A stretch of DNA of 64,000 bases from IMG/VR virus record IMGVR_UViG_3300026290_000001. One strand, 5' to 3'. Positions 2,608 through 58,335 of the stretch are shown piece by piece. The translations under genes and the position numbers were made by a program. The stretch's first letter is position 1, and each line of letters begins with the position of its first letter. The notes below the pieces were generated by a model that saw nothing but the letters and a program-made list of their open reading frames with translations, was not told the origin of the DNA and ran no database searches. This DNA is from a virus.

Positions 2608-3378
2608 ATGAAAGGAGAATTAGTATATAAGTTGCAATTATACTATAAAGATGAATACATAAGATTATTTCAAGGTGATTGTTTAGAAGTAATGGATAGG
2701 TTAATTGAGAAAGGTGTTAAATTTGATGCAATAATTACTGATCCTCCTTACGGGACTACAGCTTGTAAATGGGATAGTATCATACCATTTGATAGTATGT
2801 GGGAAAGATTAAATAAGTTAATAAAGGATAATAGTGCAATAGTTTTATTTGGTAGTGAACCATTTAGTAGTCATTTAAGAGTAAGTAATATTAAAAATTT
2901 TAAATATGATTGGATATGGAATAAAAAGAAGGGAGGAAGTCCTTTACTTTCTAAAATACAACCAATAAAAATATTTGAAATTATATCTGTTTTTGGGAAA
3001 GGGAAAATAAATTATTATCCAGTAATGGTTGATAGAGATAAACCTAAATCAAGGGGTAAGAATAGAGGAACTATTAGTGATACAACAAATAATTGTTTTT
3101 CAGAAGATAAGATTTATACGCAATATTATCCTAAAGCAATTATAGAATTTTCAAATGCTAGTCAAAAAAATAAATTTCACCCAACTCAAAAACCAGTGGA
3201 GCTAATGGAATATCTTATTAACACATATACACAAGAGAATGAAATTATATTAGATTTTACTTGCGGTTCTGGTACAACATTATTAGCATCAAGAAATCTT
3301 AAAAGAAAATGTATCGGTATTGAATTGGAAGAAAAATATTGTGAAATAACTAAACAAAGATTAGAAAAAGCAAGTTAA
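2608..3378 (+). CDS. DNA methyltransferase, beta-class (DPPY)
   Basis: Motif IV AIITDPPYG, motif I DFTCGSGTT, TQKP motif; ATG 2608 overlaps the AAAGGAGAA RBS, so in-frame TTG 2632 may be the true start. Confidence 0.8.
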   Translation: MKGELVYKLQLYYKDEYIRLFQGDCLEVMDRLIEKGVKFDAIITDPPYGTTACKWDSIIPFDSMWERLNKLIKDNSAIVLFGSEPFSSHLRVSNIKNFKYDWIWNKKKGGSPLLSKIQPIKIFEIISVFGKGKINYYPVMVDRDKPKSRGKNRGTISDTTNNCFSEDKIYTQYYPKAIIEFSNASQKNKFHPTQKPVELMEYLINTYTQENEIILDFTCGSGTTLLASRNLKRKCIGIELEEKYCEITKQRLEKAS

Positions 3379-3505
3379 ATATAAAAACAGCATAAAATTC
3401 TAGTTTGGTTCAAAAATAGACGCCTAAAGATTGGGATTCTTAGAGTATGGATTTTTCAAAATAATTATTAAAATAAAAATATAAATATTGGAGGTAAATA
3501 TATAA

Positions 3506-4345
3506 TTGATAGAATTAAATAATTTTTATATAGGGGAATCTGTTAATTTTATGCGTAAAAATATTCCTGATAATTTTGTAGATTTAACAGTTACAAGTCC
3601 ACCTTATGATGATTTAAGAAAATATAATGGATTTATTTTTGATTATGAAACAATTTTTAAAGAACTTTTTAGAATAACTAAAAATGGTGGAATTGTTGTA
3701 TGGATAATAGGAGATAAGACAGAAAAAGGAACGGAAAGTCTAACAAGTTTTAAACATGCTTTAAGTGCTAAAAATATAGGATTTAATGTTCATGATACAA
3801 TGATATGGTTAAAACCTAATCCAACACCAACTGATCCTAAATGTTTAAGATATTATAATGCTTTTGAATACATGTTCGTTTTTTCTAAAGGAAAACCAAA
3901 AACATGTAATTATATAAAAGAAAAATCTAAAAATACAGGTAAAGAATTTGGTTCAGCTCCAATGAAAAGAGTAGATGGAACTAACAGAGATGACAGAACT
4001 GAAAAGTTAAAGGGTATAAAAATAAAAGACTATAAAATTAAAAGTAATGTATGGGAATGTGCTATAGGTTCAGGGGTATCTAAAGATAAAATTGCTTTTA
4101 AACATCCAGCAATTTTCCCTGAAAAATTAGTTGAAGATCACATAATTTCTTGGACTAATAAAAATGATATTGTACTAGACCCTATGTGTGGTTCGGGTAC
4201 AACGTGCAAAATGGCATGGTTAAACAAGCGTAATTTTATTGGAATTGATATGAGTGAAGAATACATAAATAACATTTGTATACCAAGATTAAATACATAT
4301 GGTTGGGAACAGAATAAAGAAAACGTATTTCAAGATTGCCTATAA
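3506..4345 (+). CDS. DNA methyltransferase, SPPY type (N4-cytosine-like or N6-adenine)
   Basis: TTG start 9 nt after GGAGG; TVTSPPYDDLRKYNG and DPMCGSGTT; paralog of 8521..9323. Confidence 0.8.
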   Translation: MIELNNFYIGESVNFMRKNIPDNFVDLTVTSPPYDDLRKYNGFIFDYETIFKELFRITKNGGIVVWIIGDKTEKGTESLTSFKHALSAKNIGFNVHDTMIWLKPNPTPTDPKCLRYYNAFEYMFVFSKGKPKTCNYIKEKSKNTGKEFGSAPMKRVDGTNRDDRTEKLKGIKIKDYKIKSNVWECAIGSGVSKDKIAFKHPAIFPEKLVEDHIISWTNKNDIVLDPMCGSGTTCKMAWLNKRNFIGIDMSEEYINNICIPRLNTYGWEQNKENVFQDCL

Positions 4346-4419
4346 ATTGGGCTTTATAATCTATAAAATCATTACCAAATTTGAGTTTGGTTCAAAGTTA
4401 TAGAAAGGAGAAATTATAA

Positions 4420-5256
4420 ATTATCAATACATATTATAAAAATAAATATGCAAGGATATATCAATGTGACAATTTAGAATTATTAAAACAATTACCAAAT
4501 GAATACATAGATTTAATTTATTGTGATATTTTATACAACACTGGTAAGAAATTTAAGGATTATGATGATCAATTAGGCACAACACAAGAAGCAATTAAAT
4601 GGTATAAACCAAGATTAATAGAAATGAAAAGAGTATTAAAGGAAACAGGATCAATTTATTTACATATGGATTTTAGATTAATACATTATTTAAAAGTAAA
4701 AATGGATGAAATATTTCAATTAAATAATTTTAGAAATGAGATTATATGGGATAAAGGATTTAGGGGTACGGAGCAAAAAGAGTTTTATCAACATTCGCAT
4801 GATTCAATATTATTTTATACAAAAACTAATAACTACATATGGAATAAAGTTTTTTGTGAATATGCTGATAAAAATATGAGTAGGTATAATAAAACTGATG
4901 AAGATGGAAATAAATATGCTTTAATTAAAAGAAAAAGAACAGACGGAAGTGTTTATTATGGCAAAACATATCCACAATCAGAAGGAAAGAAAGCAGACGA
5001 TGTATTTAGAGATATAAAAACTTTTTCATCAACAGCTAAAGAAAGAATTGGTTATGATACTCAAAAACCAAAGGCATTATTAGAACGTATTATTAAAGCA
5101 TCTTCTAATGAAGGAGATATAGTAGCAGACTTCTTTATGGGATCAGGCACTACTGGCGAAGTGGCATTAGAATTAGGTCGTAAATTTATTGGTTGTGATA
5201 TTGGGGAAAGGGCATGTGAGATTACTAAAAATAGATTAGATAAAATTATAATATAA
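4420..5256 (+). CDS. DNA methyltransferase homolog with degenerate motif IV (DILY); start uncertain (ATT 4420) or pseudogene
   Basis: Track ORF 4624..5256 has TQKP and DFFMGSGTT; upstream in-frame sequence ([31 protein letters not shown]) is clearly MTase N-terminus; no ATG/GTG/TTG between TAA 4417-4419 and 4624; ATT 4420 lies 9 nt after AAAGGAG. Confidence 0.55.
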
Positions 5257-44236: not shown

Positions 44237-44953
44237 CTACTTCTTCAATTCTTTAAGTAAATATTCAACGGCATTATCAATTAAAACAGCACATTCTATT
44301 CGTGTAATACTACTATTAGGATCTAAAATCCCATCGCCTTTACCAGAAAGTATTTTCTTCTCATATAATCTATCTGCACTTTTTGCTCCCCAATGATCTT
44401 TAGGCAAGTCTTTAAAATACTTTGACATTTCTTCAATCACCTTACCTTTCAACAATTCCTTCTGAACTTCATTTTTAAATTTATCCCATGTCCAACCTAA
44501 ATGACCTGCTCTTATTAAACGTGGACAATTTTTTCCATTCCAATCCCAATGCTGTCTTAATGATTCTACATTTTTATTTTTAGATTTTAATAATTCTGCC
44601 ACAAGTAAAACTGCATTTTCTAATGTTTTTTGGTAATTCCCACTTTCACATATTTCAATTCCTATACTACGTCTATTACCAGCACCACTTCCTCCATCTC
44701 CTGCGTGCCAAGCATTTTCAAATAAAGGAATACATTCAATTGCTTGTTTTTCATCAATGGCAATATGATAACCTGTAGAAGATGTATTTGAAGGATTGGT
44801 TAAATAATCTCTTTCATTTCTTGCAGTAGATTTTGAATTCCCTGTGTTGTGAATAGTAATATATTCCCAATCCATTTTATATTTTGGACGTTTATTAGAA
44901 TTCATAGGAATGTGATCTATTACATAAGGAAAAGGTAAATTAAATTTACTCAT
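44237..44953 (-). CDS. endolysin: N-acetylmuramoyl-L-alanine amidase (Amidase_2/PGRP) with C-terminal SLH-like domain
   Basis: ITIHNTGN … HIAIDE … AWHAGDG … CPRL; C-terminal GKGDGILDPNSSITRIECAVL. Confidence 0.8.
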   Translation of the reverse strand: MSKFNLPFPYVIDHIPMNSNKRPKYKMDWEYITIHNTGNSKSTARNERDYLTNPSNTSSTGYHIAIDEKQAIECIPLFENAWHAGDGGSGAGNRRSIGIEICESGNYQKTLENAVLLVAELLKSKNKNVESLRQHWDWNGKNCPRLIRAGHLGWTWDKFKNEVQKELLKGKVIEEMSKYFKDLPKDHWGAKSADRLYEKKILSGKGDGILDPNSSITRIECAVLIDNAVEYLLKELKK

Positions 44954-46456: not shown

Positions 46457-47461
46457 TTATTGATAGAAATATTGAGTATAACTTTGTTGCTTGTGTTCAA
46501 ACGTTTGTTTTGCGTAAATGCCCGTAGTTTGAATATCATCATGACCTAAAAGTTCTTGTAATACCGACATTGGACAACCGTTATTTAGCATCAAGGTTGC
46601 GAAAGTATGTCTGAGCATATGGGGATGAGTTCTCTTGTCAAGCCCTGCACGTTTACCTATTGCTGCTATTTCTCGTTGAATACCTCGATTGCTTAATCTT
46701 CTATATTCCTGCCGTTCTGTTACAAATAATGCTTCACAGTCATCCTTACGACTTTCAAGATATTTTTTAAGGTAAATTGCAGCTCTAGCAGAATAGAATA
46801 CAATTCGCTCTTTGTTTCCTTTGCCTAATACCTTAATCGTCCGATTTGATTGTCCTATATCATCTTTATTTAGTGCCGATATTTCAGATAATCGACAACC
46901 TGTTGAATACATAATTTCAGTTAATGCTTTTTCTCGCAAAGTGAAACAACTTTCACGGAATAGTTCCAATTCTTCAATTGTTAATGCCTTTGCCATTGCT
47001 TTTCCCACTTTATAAGGTTTAATTCTAATCATCGGATTTTCTTCAATAATCTGTTCCTCACAAAGCCATTCAAAGAAACTGCGAAGTACTGAGCGAATTG
47101 TCTCAACAGTACTTTTAGCATTTACTGTTGGGTCGCTTTCCCGATCATCCAGATAGTTAATTATGTCCTGCTTGGTTATTTCATTTACTGGTTTTTCTTC
47201 GGTTCTATCGGTAAATATTTTAAGATGAAGTCGATAATTATCAATAGTTATTGGACTTAATCCTTGCCGTTTTTTATCCTTCAAAAACAGTTTTATGTTT
47301 TTCCGCAAATTATAATATTCTGGATCGCTGTTTTGTTTTATAACTCTGTATTCATCAAGAATGGAGGCTAATTGATTTTTAGCCTCCATCTTATTCATGC
47401 CTTTTTCTATGATTCCATCTACAATTTTAGCATATAGCTCATAATTGAGATTAGGGTGCAT
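46457..47461 (-). CDS. tyrosine site-specific recombinase (integrase), XerC/D-like
   Basis: Catalytic signature RLSE … HPHMLRHTFAT … LGHDDIQTTGIYA; 334 aa. Confidence 0.85.
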   Translation of the reverse strand: MHPNLNYELYAKIVDGIIEKGMNKMEAKNQLASILDEYRVIKQNSDPEYYNLRKNIKLFLKDKKRQGLSPITIDNYRLHLKIFTDRTEEKPVNEITKQDIINYLDDRESDPTVNAKSTVETIRSVLRSFFEWLCEEQIIEENPMIRIKPYKVGKAMAKALTIEELELFRESCFTLREKALTEIMYSTGCRLSEISALNKDDIGQSNRTIKVLGKGNKERIVFYSARAAIYLKKYLESRKDDCEALFVTERQEYRRLSNRGIQREIAAIGKRAGLDKRTHPHMLRHTFATLMLNNGCPMSVLQELLGHDDIQTTGIYAKQTFEHKQQSYTQYFYQ

Positions 47462-53472: not shown

Positions 53473-53536
53473 TTTTATAATTCCTCCTTAAATTTATATT
53501 TGTAAAATAATAAATAATTTAATAAATATTTAAATA

Positions 53537-53716
53537 TTAAATATTAAAACCCATATCTTTTAAATTATCTTCTGATGCCATAAAATCATCTTCAGATATA
53601 ATAACTTCAATGGGTTTTACCAAACCTTTATCAATTTGTTCCTGTGTTGCCCAATCAGGATATTTTTCTAATCTGAGCGTTGCTTTCATGCTAATTCCCA
53701 TTTTTTCATTATTCAT
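53537..53716 (-). CDS. small hypothetical protein (59 aa), absent from the ORF track
   Basis: Minus-strand ATG 9 nt after AAGGAGG; fills the gap between structural genes. Confidence 0.3.
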   Translation of the reverse strand: MNNEKMGISMKATLRLEKYPDWATQEQIDKGLVKPIEVIISEDDFMASEDNLKDMGFNI

Positions 53717-53779
53717 AAAATCTAATAATTACCTCCTTATTTTTCTAGTATATTTATATTAATAAAATAATTAATATCT

Positions 53780-54286
53780 TTATTCTTGATAGACGAACCA
53801 AATGTCCCCATCCTCACCGTCTTCATTACTAGGTTGTACAGTAGAAAATATAAAATGGTGTGCAGAAGTTTGTATTATATCTTCAAGTGTTTCTTTAATA
53901 TCATAAGAACCACTACCATTAGATTGAAAACTACTATAAATCCTACTTGCGGGTATATAAACTCCACCACTACCATAAAAAGAAAATTGTAATATACTTC
54001 CACTTACATCAGGATGAAAATAAACGTATCCATATACATAATCTACTTTATATGTACCAATTTTACTTTCTGTGTCTAATGTAGGAAAACCATCAACAAT
54101 TTCATACCACTGGTAAGTTTCCAATCCAAAATTACCCATGACCTGAACTTTATTTTGCCTATGCGGAATTTCTGATAATATTACTAATCCATTTATTATT
54201 TTTTTATATTCACTTAATGAAACTAAAGGTTGCTCATTATTACCTCTTCGTATTGAAATAAAAGGATCATAAAAAATTTGATTCAA
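53780..54286 (-). CDS. hypothetical structural protein
   Basis: 168-aa ORF with GGAGGTGA RBS. Confidence 0.45.
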   Translation of the reverse strand: MNQIFYDPFISIRRGNNEQPLVSLSEYKKIINGLVILSEIPHRQNKVQVMGNFGLETYQWYEIVDGFPTLDTESKIGTYKVDYVYGYVYFHPDVSGSILQFSFYGSGGVYIPASRIYSSFQSNGSGSYDIKETLEDIIQTSAHHFIFSTVQPSNEDGEDGDIWFVYQE

Positions 54287-54448
54287 AATTTATCACCTCC
54301 AACCTAATTTTTCAAAAAATAGAAAAATCAAAAATGTTCAAAAATTTATCTTCTGTTTTCTCTTGTTTTCTTCCATTTACTCTGTTTTTCAAGCACAAAA
54401 TTTGAATAAAAGGAATATTTTATTGTTGAGCCAAGAACACTCGTGACT

Positions 54449-55741
54449 TCAGTCATGAGATGAATTGGCTCTGTTCTGTTCATATATAATCCATGATTTT
54501 CTTGCATTAATTCTTTGCATGTTAGATATTTTCGGTGTCTTCATACCTCTGGGTGCATTACTAAAATCTATTTTTTCACCATCTATACCCATAAGAATGG
54601 CATAACCCGTAGACATTCTACCTTTAATAAAATATTCATTACCTATATACCTTACTTTATCAAACTTCCTAAATCCTTCTATTTTACCTGTAGGTATCTT
54701 CTGATGACTTCTTACTCCTTTTGCCTGTTGGTAATCGCCTTTAGGGATACACTTTTTTAATACAGCTTTTTCAGTTTTAAAGCTTACATCAATTAACCCT
54801 ATATCTTCAATATTATTTAAACAGGCAATAGCTACAGCATCGTAGTAATGCTCTTTTGGTAATCCCATTAGCTGTCTATGTTCTTTGGTAATAAATCCAA
54901 AGGTTTCTTTTGCATTTGGTAGCTGTCTTAATAATTGTTGTCTTATACTATTCATCTGTGTTGTGTGTTTTAATTGTCCTTTAATTTTACCATTCTTCTT
55001 TAATTTAATTCCTCCTTTGTGCAAACTATTATGACAAGTTTTACAAAGTGTAATTAAATTTTCTGCATCATCTGAGCCACCATTTTTTCTAAAAACTATA
55101 TGATGTACCTCTAATCTGCTGTCTTTACTTTTTCCTTTGCAATACTGGCAAATATATTTATCTCTACTTAATACATAAGCTTTAGTATTAGCAAATCCAT
55201 AATTAGTTCCTTTTTGATAAAGCCATTTATTACTTAATACTGCTGGATTTTTTAAAGCATGTGGGTCAAATGTTGCTGTTTCTATTATTATATTTGTAAT
55301 GGGCATTATTGATTTTGCAAAATCAATTTCTTTTAAGTGTGAATTAATTTTACTTGTCATTGTAGGAGAAAATCTATCTTTTTTAATGCTGTTTTTCCTA
55401 TTATTAAATCTAGGTTCCCTATATCTAGTTTTCCTATTCCTTCTAGTTCTCCTATATTTAGCTCTTTTGTCCATTTTGTCAGATATATCATTTCTAATTT
55501 CTACTTCTGATATATAATACACTTCATTTTCGTCATTTGCTACTGCACTTCCTATTTTACTACTACCAGTATCAATTCCTAAAGTTAAATCTTGTGTATA
55601 GTCTGTAGCATGATATAGTAATTTAATTGTAAATGGAGTTCTTCTTATGCATTTTGCTTTACCATCTTTTAACAATAATCTTGCTATTGCTGGTTTACAA
55701 GGCATTAAAGGACTCCCATCTTCATTAATTACATAAACCAT
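54449..55741 (-). CDS. iscB: IscB, OMEGA-family RNA-guided endonuclease (PLMP domain, split RuvC, HNH)
   Basis: PLMP (EDGSPLMPCKPAIARLLLKDGKAK); RuvC-I LGIDTGSSKIGSAV; RuvC-II IIIETATFD; HNH CQYCKG…HHIVFRKNGGSDDAENLITLCKTCH; RuvC-III PKEHYYDAVAIAC; 430 aa; RBS AAAGGA. Confidence 0.8.
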   Translation of the reverse strand: MVYVINEDGSPLMPCKPAIARLLLKDGKAKCIRRTPFTIKLLYHATDYTQDLTLGIDTGSSKIGSAVANDENEVYYISEVEIRNDISDKMDKRAKYRRTRRNRKTRYREPRFNNRKNSIKKDRFSPTMTSKINSHLKEIDFAKSIMPITNIIIETATFDPHALKNPAVLSNKWLYQKGTNYGFANTKAYVLSRDKYICQYCKGKSKDSRLEVHHIVFRKNGGSDDAENLITLCKTCHNSLHKGGIKLKKNGKIKGQLKHTTQMNSIRQQLLRQLPNAKETFGFITKEHRQLMGLPKEHYYDAVAIACLNNIEDIGLIDVSFKTEKAVLKKCIPKGDYQQAKGVRSHQKIPTGKIEGFRKFDKVRYIGNEYFIKGRMSTGYAILMGIDGEKIDFSNAPRGMKTPKISNMQRINARKSWIIYEQNRANSSHD

Positions 55742-56025
55742 AAAATCAAATCCTTTCGGATAAATACTCTGCTTAAAAGCAGGTTATGCGTATCTATATA
55801 CTATTACCATATATAGAATTCGTCCTCATCTCGACAATGATAAAATAGCTTATATGTATATCACACCGAGCCTTACCCTCCAACTCTACTTAGTGATATA
55901 CGATAGAGCAATGGTCTGATGCGTCAACCAAAGGTATCATAACTATTCTATCGTAGTATAAATTTCTCTATACTAAGTCTGGTGAACTTAGACTTTAGAA
56001 GCCTCCGACTTTAGTCGGGGGTAGT
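55742..56025 (-). ncRNA. candidate omegaRNA of the IscB locus
   Basis: ~280-nt non-coding stretch directly 5' of iscB; GC well above surroundings; nested inverted repeats (GTGAACT…CCGACTTTAGTCGG…AGTTCAC at 55982-56030; GTATATCAC/GTGATATAC; CTGCTTAAAAGCAG). Confidence 0.4.
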
Positions 56026-56271
56026 TCACTCTATTTCAGGATTGATAGATAAATCATCTTTGCTTGTACTATTTACATTAGATAAATTATCTTCATTGGA
56101 CAAATCATCATTAATAATTTGACTTAATTCGTCTATTTTAGAACTTAATTTGATAATCTCTATCTGATACATATTATTTTGTAAACATAAAGTGACTACA
56201 TCTAAGGGCAAATTACTATTGTTTATTAACTCTGCCAGTTTAATATTAAAATCACTTATAATAAAAATCAC
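56026..56271 (-). CDS. hypothetical protein
   Basis: 81-aa ORF; overlapping plus-strand ORF 56192..56539 is hydrophobic low-complexity and less plausible. Confidence 0.35.
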   Translation of the reverse strand: MIFIISDFNIKLAELINNSNLPLDVVTLCLQNNMYQIEIIKLSSKIDELSQIINDDLSNEDNLSNVNSTSKDDLSINPEIE

Positions 56272-56328
56272 TTCCTTTATATTATTTTTTTATCTTATTA
56301 TATTGTTATTTTTTATCTTACTATCTTG

Positions 56329-56649
56329 CTATATTGTTATCTGCGCTTTTATTTCAATCCTACAAGTGTTATTAAAAATATCTTTGTTAATATTTATTAC
56401 TTTTCCATCTAATAATCTATTTATCTCATTTTCGTATTTATCAATAAAAACCACATCGATTTTATTATCTAGATTTAATTCTAAAAAACTACAAACATCT
56501 GAACTTTTATTTGTTGGGATTTGCCCTATAAATCTGTGATAATAAATATTTTCCATTTCATGATAATAAACATCTAAAGTTCCTTGTTGAAAATCGTCTG
56601 AATAGATATGGTTGTCTAGGCAATTAAATTTTATTTTTAATTTCATCAC
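56329..56649 (-). CDS. hypothetical protein
   Basis: 106-aa ORF with balanced composition. Confidence 0.45.
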   Translation of the reverse strand: MMKLKIKFNCLDNHIYSDDFQQGTLDVYYHEMENIYYHRFIGQIPTNKSSDVCSFLELNLDNKIDVVFIDKYENEINRLLDGKVININKDIFNNTCRIEIKAQITI

Positions 56650-56679
56650 CTTCTTTCAAGTTTATTTATTTTTATATTG

Positions 56680-57606
56680 TTATTGAACTCCGTTTAATTT
56701 ATCTTCAAGTGTTATAAAATATGAACCATACACTATATCACCTGGAATCCTATCTGTAATCCCTGTTGAATTCATATTTCCTATTGCTGTTCTTGCAATA
56801 TTAAATTTCAAAGCAGTTAATGTTTTATTGCTAGATGAAACTTTTGCATTAGTTATATGATAAGATGTTCCACCTACTGTTACATATTCAGTTAAACCTT
56901 TGTAATTCCTAAACTCTACTATTTTATCAACAAACGAATTCCATCGATCCCATGTCAAAGTTGTTACTGCACCATGATTATTGAAAGCATTTCTTTCTGC
57001 TGTAGTCCAAGACCAATTAGTAGGACGAGATTTTGAAGTAGTTAAATAAGTATAACCAGACCAATCCGAAACCTCATAATTATAATTACGATCCCTTGCT
57101 CTACATCTAAATCCATATTGTGTATTTGGTTGTAAATTATTAAATGTGTCTGAAGGAGAATATGGTGAAGCAGTAATTCCATTAGTGCATTGAATATCAT
57201 AAACATTAGCATTAGATACATTAGAATAGTTTATAGTAATTGAATTAGAAGATATTGATGAACTAATATAATATGGTGTAGACAATTTTGATCTTGCTGT
57301 AGTTACATATATTGTATCTATTAAATACCAAGTTCCGTTCCATTTTCCAGATACTGAAACTTTATATTCAGTATTAGGTGTTAATTTTTGATATAAAGGA
57401 GGACTAGGCATTGAATTATAAATATCGTGCCATGTATTATAAGTAGAATTGGTTGATGTCCAATTATTCCAATATACATACTCTTGTGTACTTGACTTTA
57501 CAAGCACAATCTCAAATCCACCATAATCTTTTGCAGGATATGTTAATTCAGTAACATTGATTCGCATAGAATTGGAAGTTACATTATTGGCATATATTCT
57601 AGCCAT
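56680..57606 (-). CDS. structural protein with fibronectin type III-like repeats
   Basis: Repeated FN3-like blocks (PNTEYKVSVSG, PNTQYGFRCRARD), Trp/Tyr/Ser/Thr-rich. Confidence 0.5.
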   Translation of the reverse strand: MARIYANNVTSNSMRINVTELTYPAKDYGGFEIVLVKSSTQEYVYWNNWTSTNSTYNTWHDIYNSMPSPPLYQKLTPNTEYKVSVSGKWNGTWYLIDTIYVTTARSKLSTPYYISSSISSNSITINYSNVSNANVYDIQCTNGITASPYSPSDTFNNLQPNTQYGFRCRARDRNYNYEVSDWSGYTYLTTSKSRPTNWSWTTAERNAFNNHGAVTTLTWDRWNSFVDKIVEFRNYKGLTEYVTVGGTSYHITNAKVSSSNKTLTALKFNIARTAIGNMNSTGITDRIPGDIVYGSYFITLEDKLNGVQ

Positions 57607-57735
57607 AAAATCACCTAAATTTCTTTATAATTGAATAAATTATTTAAAAAAGAATAATAATAATTAATAAGCAAAATAGTTAAATAGTATTGTAAAAAAT
57701 TAGATAATATGATAGTATAAATATATATTATTAAA

Positions 57736-58335
57736 ATGAAAGGATGTATAATAATGAAAATTAAAAACTTATCTTATCTGTTTATTGGTTTGCTAGTTGG
57801 GTGTTTATTTCCCATTCAATCTTTATTTGCCGAACAACCTATTACATTAATTATCAATGGTAAAACAATTACTAATGCTTCACCACAAATAGTTTCAGAT
57901 AGAACGTATGTACCTTTGAGGGTAATATCCGAAGAATTAGGTGCAACAGTTGAATGGGACGGAGTAAATAGGGTAGTTAGGGTTAATAGTGGGGATGGAC
58001 AAAAAATTGAAAAGATTAATCAAAATCAAACTCAAAACAATAATGATAATAGTAATGTGGAGAGCAACCCTAGAGATAATATCAATTATATTAGTAGTGA
58101 TGATATGGAAAAATATTACGAAAGAGATACAAATAAAGGTTTTGTAAAAAATCGTTGGGTAGATGGTAAATATTTTATTGACTATGATAGAAAAATTACA
58201 CGTTTTGAAGATTATGAATATTATTATGATAGAGAAAGAGATATATTTTATTGGGCAGATTATAAGGCAATTTTAATCTTTGGAGAAACAATAAAAGATT
58301 ATCCTAAATATAAATTTAACCAAATACAGCAGTAG
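57736..58335 (+). CDS. secreted/lipoprotein with copper-amine-oxidase-N-terminal-like domain, opposite strand to the tail module (moron-like)
   Basis: Signal peptide with lipobox-like LLVGC; domain NGKTITNASPQIVSDRTYVPLRVISEELGATVEWDGVNRVVRV. Confidence 0.55.
   Translation: MKGCIIMKIKNLSYLFIGLLVGCLFPIQSLFAEQPITLIINGKTITNASPQIVSDRTYVPLRVISEELGATVEWDGVNRVVRVNSGDGQKIEKINQNQTQNNNDNSNVESNPRDNINYISSDDMEKYYERDTNKGFVKNRWVDGKYFIDYDRKITRFEDYEYYYDRERDIFYWADYKAILIFGETIKDYPKYKFNQIQQ

Follow-up and report, generated by a model that had tools for sequence, protein, structure and literature searches.

Genes and features of the locus

The window, by which we mean the whole 64,000-nt stretch of viral DNA analysed here, carries on its minus strand a gene for an IscB nuclease and, directly 5' of it and on the same strand, a structured region (56029-55769) that very probably encodes the omegaRNA of this nuclease. 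Further upstream, and again in the same orientation, follows an 81-aa phage ORF. The RNA and the nuclease gene together fill an element of the IS200/IS605 type, whose top strand corresponds to the plus strand of the window. The coordinates of all features are collected in Table 1.

The first-pass annotation, made from the letters alone, had described the stretch between iscB and the upstream ORF (55742-56025) as non-coding, enriched in G+C and structured, and had proposed it as a candidate omegaRNA. Its composition agrees with this description. There are no ORFs of at least 40 aa inside the stretch on either strand, and only the stop codon of the 81-aa ORF (56026-56028) adjoins it. The G+C content is 0.363-0.365, depending on whether the stretch is closed at 56025 or at 56029, as compared with a window mean of 0.279 (sd 0.041, 288-nt windows), 0.224 in the left flank and 0.299 in iscB. 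Only 2.7% of the 288-nt windows are as rich in G+C.

Table 1. Coordinates of the element, its guide RNA, its nuclease gene and the adjoining phage sequence. Positions are those of the window.
Feature	Positions	Strand	Remarks
Upstream co-oriented 81-aa phage ORF	56026..56271	-	Last Glu and stop completed by the transposon
Presumed 16-nt guide, 5'-UCAAUCCUGAAAUAGA-3'	56030..56045	-	Directly precedes HEARO model position 1
Non-autonomous IS200/IS605-type element, 1606 bp	54424..56029	+	LE 54424, RE 56029
omegaRNA scaffold core (guide-adaptor hairpin, nexus and central stems, internal hairpins)	55819..56029	-	HEARO match
Helix 1, GTGAACT/AGTTCAC	56029-56023 with 55988-55982	-	Covariation-supported
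RE subterminal imperfect hairpin, CCTCCGAC-TTTA-GTCGGGGG	56002..56021	+	8 nt from RE end
Helix 2, CCGAC-TTTA-GTCGG		-	Covariation-supported
Helix 9, GTATATCAC/GTGATATAC		-	Covariation-supported
Pseudoknot 5' strand, CAUC	55918..55921	-	In the loop of the GGUUGACGCAUCAGACC hairpin
Pseudoknot 3' strand, GAUG	55827..55830	-	Just 3' of the nexus stem
Terminal hairpin 1 (UAUAUGGUAAUAGUAUA), helix 12	55797..55813	-	Outside the Rfam model
Terminal hairpin 2 (CUGCUUUUAAGCAG), then conserved AGAGUAUUUAU	55769..55782	-	Outside the Rfam model
Helix 13, CTGCTTTTAAGCAG	55782-55769	-	Covariation-supported
iscB 5' leader, Shine-Dalgarno AAAGGA in a small weak hairpin AUCC-GAAA-GGAU	55742..55768	-	Predicted
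iscB, 430 aa	54449..55741	-	Pfam RRXRR and HNH
LE subterminal imperfect hairpin, CTCGTGAC-TTCA-GTCATGAG	54440..54459	+	16 nt from the LE boundary
Transposon-adjacent motif (TAM) TTTAT	54419..54423	+	In iscB orientation ATAAA, 3' of the target

A HEARO RNA upstream of iscB

A covariance-model scan (cmscan) with 4227 Rfam families gave a single match above the gathering threshold across the whole window, namely HEARO (RF02033). The model was matched over its full length (positions 1-211 of 211) by 55819-56029 on the minus strand, with a score of 121.7 bits (E = 7e-26), the gathering score being 83. The score lies within the range found for the relatives of this RNA (107-126 bits). Later work identified HEARO as the omegaRNA of IscB (Meers et al., bioRxiv 10.1101/2023.03.14.532601; review PMC13565253). 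With a full-length match and an IscB ORF directly downstream, the omegaRNA reading of the first-pass annotation is borne out, and we hold with high confidence that the stretch upstream of iscB is an IscB omegaRNA (HEARO), encoded at 56045-55769 on the minus strand, within an IS200/IS605-type element. The ends had been placed less exactly. The region as such was the right one, but the scaffold starts at 56029, which is HEARO model position 1 (GTGAAC...), four bases beyond the end originally drawn at 56025. Similarly, a 5' guide of about 16 nt had been rightly expected on the minus strand, but its position is 56030-56045 and not 56010-56040. The HEARO RNA family, the IscB nuclease and the logic of their transposons are already established, and the locus adds one further case.

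Consensus fold and covariation

As a minus-strand transcript, 56050-55742 folds with -84.4 kcal/mol, versus -65.8 ± 4.7 kcal/mol for dinucleotide shuffles (z = -3.96), and none of 100 shuffles folded equally well. For the consensus fold, 13 distinct homologous RNAs, all from viral contigs, were aligned and folded with RNAalifold. More than half of the resulting 67 pairs (36) show compensatory double changes among the 13 homologues. Standard pairs occupy 96.8% of the cells, compared with 84.0% in column shuffles, none of which (0 of 500) reached the observed value, while sliding the partners by 1-3 columns left 29-43% paired. Helices 1-11 are paired in 88-100% of the cells of the 13 homologues, with compensatory changes at many pairs.

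All five inverted repeats pointed out in the first-pass annotation are present, and four of them are covariation-supported helices. The fifth pairing, CGATAGA...TCTATCG, was rejected. Its inner pairs are kept in only 4-5 of the 13 relatives, with no compensatory changes, and its bases take other partners in the supported fold.

Two hairpins are found 3' of the Rfam model, in agreement with the remark that RF02033 is without downstream structural elements (Meers et al., bioRxiv 10.1101/2023.03.14.532601). In helix 12, compensatory changes occur in four of the five pairs and 100% of the cells are paired. Helix 13 also has compensatory changes in four of five pairs, and was flagged as terminator-like. 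Terminal hairpin 2, together with the conserved AGAGUAUUUAU behind it, likely forms the 3' end of the omegaRNA. In addition, a 4-bp pseudoknot (CAUC/GAUG) is paired in 13 of 13 sequences, with slid controls at 13-65%. One of its pairs switches between A-U in seven sequences and U-A in six, which may reflect a single evolutionary event, and we consider the support from covariation as moderate. The omegaRNA of OgeuIscB has a nexus pseudoknot stem at the matching position (PMC9640706).

Between the omegaRNA and iscB, a hairpin around the ribosome-binding site is predicted at the same offset, though with different stems, in eight of nine homologues. These hairpins are each weak (-3 to -6.6 kcal/mol, z = -0.7 to -1.7), and we only tentatively regard the hairpin as a real feature of the leader.

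The IscB protein

The 430-aa iscB ORF is uninterrupted, and every catalytic and zinc-binding motif is present. Pfam RRXRR covers residues 2-178 (2e-54), HNH covers residues 198-242 (4e-14), the PLMP motif is found at residues 11-14, and an Arg-rich bridge helix (RRXRR) is present. Against the solved OgeuIscB chains, phmmer matched residues 1-308 (E ~1e-43); the matches to solved IscB end at residue 308, and residues 309-430, where C-terminal WED and TAM-interacting domains would be expected, are conserved among close relatives. The RuvC residues are D57 (GIDTG) in RuvC-I, E154 (IIIETATF) in RuvC-II and H298/D301 (EHYYDA) in RuvC-III. The HNH domain has H213/H214 (HHIV), N228 and H237, with CxxC at 198 and 233. 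In the motif alignment there is thus a counterpart for each catalytic residue of OgeuIscB (D61, E193, H247, H340 and D343; PMC9640706).

IscBs from phages are already included in PHROGs (phrog_119 and phrog_2214, labelled 'HNH endonuclease') and are also present in GenBank phages. Exactly the same IscB as in the window was found in 13 contigs, all of the same phage and with the element at the same place. Their identical site and protein are a sign of stability, not of activity.

Transposon ends and mobility

When compared with related loci by blastn, the element is similar to the other copies from about 56030 down to about 54415-54419, roughly 30 nt beyond the iscB stop, and the flanks further out are unrelated in every locus. 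According to Meers et al. (bioRxiv 10.1101/2023.03.14.532601), the transposon RE delimits the HEARO that precedes iscB, and the TAM is located at the LE; following them, we took the omegaRNA end as RE and the motif-side end, downstream of iscB, as LE. Exactly 54424-56029 is missing from L066, a contig from a related phage that is described below, with a 1-nt ambiguity at the boundary (A at both joints). TTTAT precedes the LE in all of the 13 insertions examined that show left-flank sequence. The same pentanucleotide is the TAM of the Geobacillus element ISGst2, and TTCAT is that of ISGst5 (Meers et al., bioRxiv 10.1101/2023.03.14.532601). From the insertion sites only, we infer that the IscB of the window would recognise ATAAA.

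Both ends carry a subterminal hairpin, and the two are alike, each an 8-bp stem that has one G-T mismatch and GAC/GTC next to a TTYA loop of 4 nt. The LE hairpin overlaps the iscB stop codon. The RE end reads ..TAGTTCAC|, and the bases of its hairpin double as omegaRNA helix 2 on the opposite strand.

Neither the element nor the 64-kb window yielded a tnpA (tblastn best E = 0.49). We therefore regard the element as non-autonomous, a state that Meers et al. (bioRxiv 10.1101/2023.03.14.532601) give for about 98% of iscB elements. Three related loci (L007, L009 and L011) have an IS200-type Y1 tnpA with a HUH motif directly after iscB. In other viral contigs, further copies with 75-92% nucleotide identity are found, and the sequence around them is unrelated.

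The guide and an empty site in a related phage

The presumed guide, for which a length of 16 nt was borrowed from OgeuIscB (PMC9640706), does not belong to the transposon but is part of the phage DNA beside it, where it supplies the final codons of the 81-aa ORF. In every independent copy of the element, the 16 nt 5' of the scaffold are different. The guide flank, TTTAT and the element ends together predict a donor joint, TCAATCCTGAAATAGA|ATAAA. The first-pass annotation had suggested looking for targets of the guide in competing phages, and this search succeeded. Using the 21-mer of guide and TAM against metagenome contigs, we retrieved L066 (Ga0255344_1057225), which belongs to a related phage with an empty site. 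Here, the guide match is perfect and is followed by ATAAAA, and the site reads TCAATCCTGAAATAGA|ATAAA as predicted. The contig is collinear with the window on both sides, has the same gene order, and is without exactly the predicted 1606 bp. The empty site consists of the left flank, ATAAA and the right flank, with no duplicated bases, and a target-site duplication is hence absent. The empty site fixes both boundaries of the element, and it means that the target of the guide exists in nature.

Identity of the flanks to L066 is uneven, being 88.3% on the guide side (57307-56022) and 97.6% on the TAM side (54424-53767); on the guide side, the 19 nt beside the junction are identical between the two phages. 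L066 was the one empty-site contig found. An anchor pattern of 16 + 17 nt with a gap had no match in viral or metagenome contigs, and missed L066, which differs from the right anchor by a single SNP.

Elsewhere in the window, with up to three mismatches allowed, the guide has no match with fewer than three, and the two sites with three are at chance level. Other matches to the 21-mer (L048/L049/L065, L063/L067 and L064) have unrelated flanks; we rejected them as targets and treated them as chance. Roughly 0.1-0.3 such chance matches are expected in IMG/VR, according to our own estimate from base composition. L048, L049 and L065 represent one viral contig of 136.9 kb (IMGVR_UViG_3300027852_000032), with an exact 21-nt match to guide and TAM (TCAATCCTGAAATAGAATAAA, 3157-3177 in L049) that sits in unrelated, more G+C-rich phage sequence. 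This match is probably a chance one. If the nuclease is active, the site would be a cleavable off-site target.

The empty site also bears on the question whether the stretch upstream of iscB is a guide RNA at all. It could instead be an element acting in cis, either at the end of the 81-aa gene, as its 3' UTR or terminator, an alternative that the first-pass annotation had itself raised, or as a 5' leader regulating the translation of iscB. The last hairpin is terminator-like and a weak hairpin encloses the iscB ribosome-binding site, so that the 3'-most 30-60 nt may act in cis as well. However, HEARO is matched over its full length and with a score well above the threshold. Moreover, the whole stretch is missing from the empty-site phage, whose 81-aa gene has a normal end, and it travels with iscB into unrelated contexts; these two observations exclude it as the 3' UTR or terminator of the upstream gene. 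Taken as a whole, a purely cis-acting element is extremely improbable.

The upstream ORF and the phage

The insertion is silent for the product of the 81-aa ORF. The first four bases of the transposon complete the codons GAG TGA at the end of the ORF, where L066 has GAA TAA, and the protein ends with ...PEIE in both phages. The stop codon falls inside the first stem of the omegaRNA. Insertion at the stop codons of ORFs in the same orientation was also considered as a general rule and was rejected. It fits the copy of the window (with 87 open codons) and perhaps that of L006, but not the seven other copies; the test took in nine copies and left out L054, L055, L057, L059 and L061.

The neighbouring genes form a tail module, with Dit, a minor tail protein, and YomG_N- and YomF_N-type proteins. 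All the genes upstream of the omegaRNA share its orientation, and the same locus was found on contigs of 135-138 kb, including Ga0123327_1000018 and ERZ27268616 k141_863810. Beyond the tail module, on its downstream side, the minus strand encodes a tyrosine integrase with Phage_integrase domains (46457-47461) and a lysin with Amidase_2 and SLH domains (44237-44953). The integrase and the lysin suggest a temperate phage, whose host may have an S-layer or a cell wall that anchors SLH domains. As part of our best explanation, we are confident that the element sits in the tail-gene cluster of a temperate phage of about 135 kb, with a low-G+C, Firmicutes-like host.

The tail cluster is interrupted by a gene on the opposite strand (57736-58335, plus), which encodes 199 aa with a signal-peptide-like N-terminus and a Cu_amine_oxidN1-type domain, and which overlaps the 3' end of the gene for a 957-aa tail protein. 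A megablast search of 53500-58000 against 50,697 phage records gave no match, and a search of IMG/VR for relatives of the YomF_N-like neighbour returned only the same phage. A scan for sigma-70 promoters was uninformative, with 25 sites versus 25.1 expected.

Homing or retention as the likely function

The most likely interpretation is that the element acts as an RNA-guided homing or retention nuclease against its empty allele. Its RNA would be made by read-through from the co-oriented late/tail operon. Read-through is proposed because the guide is not part of the element and falls within the 3' end of the 81-aa ORF. A bias of IscB elements towards the orientation of the gene upstream of them has been reported (Meers et al., bioRxiv 10.1101/2023.03.14.532601), and the orientation of the upstream genes in the window fits this bias, which makes read-through the simplest source of a guide. 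The transcript would be trimmed to a guide of about 16 nt and a scaffold of about 260 nt. IscB would bind the scaffold and scan for 5'-TCAATCCTGAAATAGA-3' followed by ATAAA, and its RuvC and HNH domains would cut both strands of the target. The occupied locus would be immune, since the target there runs into GTGAAC and not into ATAAA. In an empty allele, the break would be repaired by recombination with an occupied copy, and the element would thereby be restored or spread. Such an empty allele could be provided by a sister genome after TnpA-mediated excision, or by a co-infecting related phage like that of L066. Transposition to new TTTAT sites would require a Y1 TnpA in trans. A retention/homing mechanism has been shown for IscB and TnpB of Geobacillus, where donor joints were cleaved (Meers et al., bioRxiv 10.1101/2023.03.14.532601).

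Homing into co-infecting phages has already been discussed in the literature (PMC13565253). In a more far-reaching form, the element could be an RNA-guided gene drive between phages, in which late read-through expression is followed by the cutting of co-infecting phages with an empty site and by their conversion or exclusion, and in which copies without iscB, of the type seen in L038, borrow IscB. We see this as a possible, though rather doubtful, extension. If true, it would provide a natural instance, and one that can be documented, of non-restorative homing of a transposon among viruses.

Some of the same observations could be read the other way, namely that a genuine IscB-omegaRNA element has become an immobile relic, now silent or inactive, and is kept because its insertion is neutral. 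Tn­pA was sought across the window without a match, the insertion does not alter the product of the upstream ORF, and all contigs with the same protein carry the element at the same site. Decay also occurs in the family, with a frameshifted iscB in L011 and a lost one in L038. On the other hand, the 430-aa ORF is intact with all its catalytic and zinc-binding motifs, and the HEARO score is as high as those of the relatives. Furthermore, guide and TAM still match the empty allele perfectly, despite a left flank that has diverged to 88%. A relic is therefore unlikely in our view.

Less probable still is a weapon or a defence, co-opted by the phage mainly for the exclusion of competing phages or for targeting host or plasmid DNA, and less for the benefit of the transposon. 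The residence of the element in a phage and the natural target, which is the allele of a related phage (L066), would suit such a role. Killing and homing are also compatible, and reviews treat both for phage homing endonucleases and OMEGA systems (PMC13565253). Yet the guide is plain flanking sequence, as in every IS-borne omegaRNA, with neither an array nor any sign of retargeting. The other 21-nt matches to guide and TAM are in unrelated contexts and about as many as expected by chance, and there is no target elsewhere in the window. Homing or retention remains our preferred reading, and the occupied and empty alleles in related phages offer a test pair for OMEGA homing versus competitor exclusion.

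Relation to known systems

The closest described counterpart of the RNA is the omegaRNA of OgeuIscB (RF02033; PDB 7UTN, 7XHT). Both match the model over its full length and lie upstream of, and co-oriented with, a gene for an RRXRR and HNH protein. They also share a 5' guide-adaptor hairpin that begins at the transposon end, nexus and central stems, a 4-bp pseudoknot and two terminal hairpins. Primary sequence, in contrast, is similar at the family level only. The protein of the window is shorter (430 versus 496 aa), and its gene lies in a phage. The motif beside the element is ATAAA, and that published for OgeuIscB is NWRRNA. This compact IscB of 430 aa, for which the AT-rich TAM ATAAA is predicted, could be mined for editing tools together with a dozen or so related omegaRNAs.

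In its transposon biology, the element resembles ISGst5 (IscB) and ISGst2 (TnpB) of Geobacillus stearothermophilus. Also in these, the omegaRNA is bounded by the RE, the guide is RE-flanking DNA, and a pentanucleotide TAM 5' of the LE is common to transposase and nuclease (TTCAT in ISGst5, TTTAT in ISGst2 and in the window). They are likewise non-autonomous and co-oriented with the upstream gene, and their donor joint equals guide target plus TAM. Activity, excision and retention of the Geobacillus elements were shown experimentally, whereas in the window element they are predictions from the sequence. It further differs in residing in a cluster of phage structural genes, and its empty site comes from a different phage strain and not from excision. 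With ends fixed within one base, a motif derived from 13 insertions and a silent insertion, the locus provides a clean natural example.

The omegaRNA or reRNA of TnpB (ISDra2, IS608) belongs to the same superfamily, and there too an RNA across the RE guides a RuvC nuclease to a TAM-adjacent empty site. With TnpB, the RNA and the 3' end of its gene overlap, the guide is at the 3' end of the RNA, and the TAM is 5' of the target. In contrast, the RNA of the window is 5' of its gene and has the guide at its 5' end, the TAM is 3' of the target, and the nuclease adds an HNH domain. Cas9 with its crRNA:tracrRNA has a homologous core of RuvC, bridge helix and HNH, a 5' guide and a motif 3' of the target. 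The window system differs from Cas9 by being without a CRISPR array, adaptation genes and a REC lobe, the latter being replaced by one large RNA, and by a guide that is fixed by the insertion site. Finally, the free-standing HNH and GIY-YIG homing endonucleases of phages (T4 Seg, Mob) are likewise encoded by genes wedged between conserved phage genes, and are expected to target the allele of a related phage without the nuclease. Recognition in the window is by RNA guide and TAM instead of by protein, and the transposon ends make mobility through TnpA possible.

Related elements and their cargo

A 36-nt core around the LE hairpin is identical in 14 loci, five viral and nine genomic (Firmicutes). 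The genomic loci include Holdemanella, Eubacterium, Clostridia MAGs, Tetragenococcus and Oceanobacillus. It appears from these sequences that one TnpA-recognised end is common to several cargo types across the Firmicutes. In the group L039-L047, the core occurs in Holdemanella biformis and H. porci, Eubacterium sp., Clostridia MAGs, a Firmicutes MAG and Oceanobacillus jeddahense, as well as in a Tetragenococcus MAG (L042), which has a partial iscB copy of the window's element itself. In all the others of this group, the core is joined to different interior sequences. TTTAT precedes all of these loci, and those scanned gave no HEARO match.

L054, when compared with L055, L061 and L062, has an identical or near-identical scaffold, and yet the guide flanks are different (GAACAATACATATAGA versus AAAAAGCGAACTTATA) and the viral contigs are not the same. 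This indicates recent transposition in a sister clade of the window's element.

In L011 (2917-4635), omegaRNA, iscB and tnpA follow each other in this order on a single strand. The iscB is split by a frameshift into two ORFs (2917-4035 and 4004-4273), and is overlapped by an IS200-type tnpA of 133 aa (4234-4635, motif DKDHIHLL). A miniature element without iscB is found in L038 (968 to ~1324), on a viral contig of 83 kb (IMGVR_UViG_3300027711_000254). Its scaffold scores 117.6 bits with HEARO and is 92% identical to 56029-55751 of the window. At the iscB ATG, it is fused to the last ~70 nt of the element, including the LE hairpin, and then to ATAAA, which reduces the ORF to ATG TGA. With its own guide flank, AAAACAAATTGAATAT, this copy looks like a stand-alone omegaRNA or a PATE-like element that would require IscB in trans.
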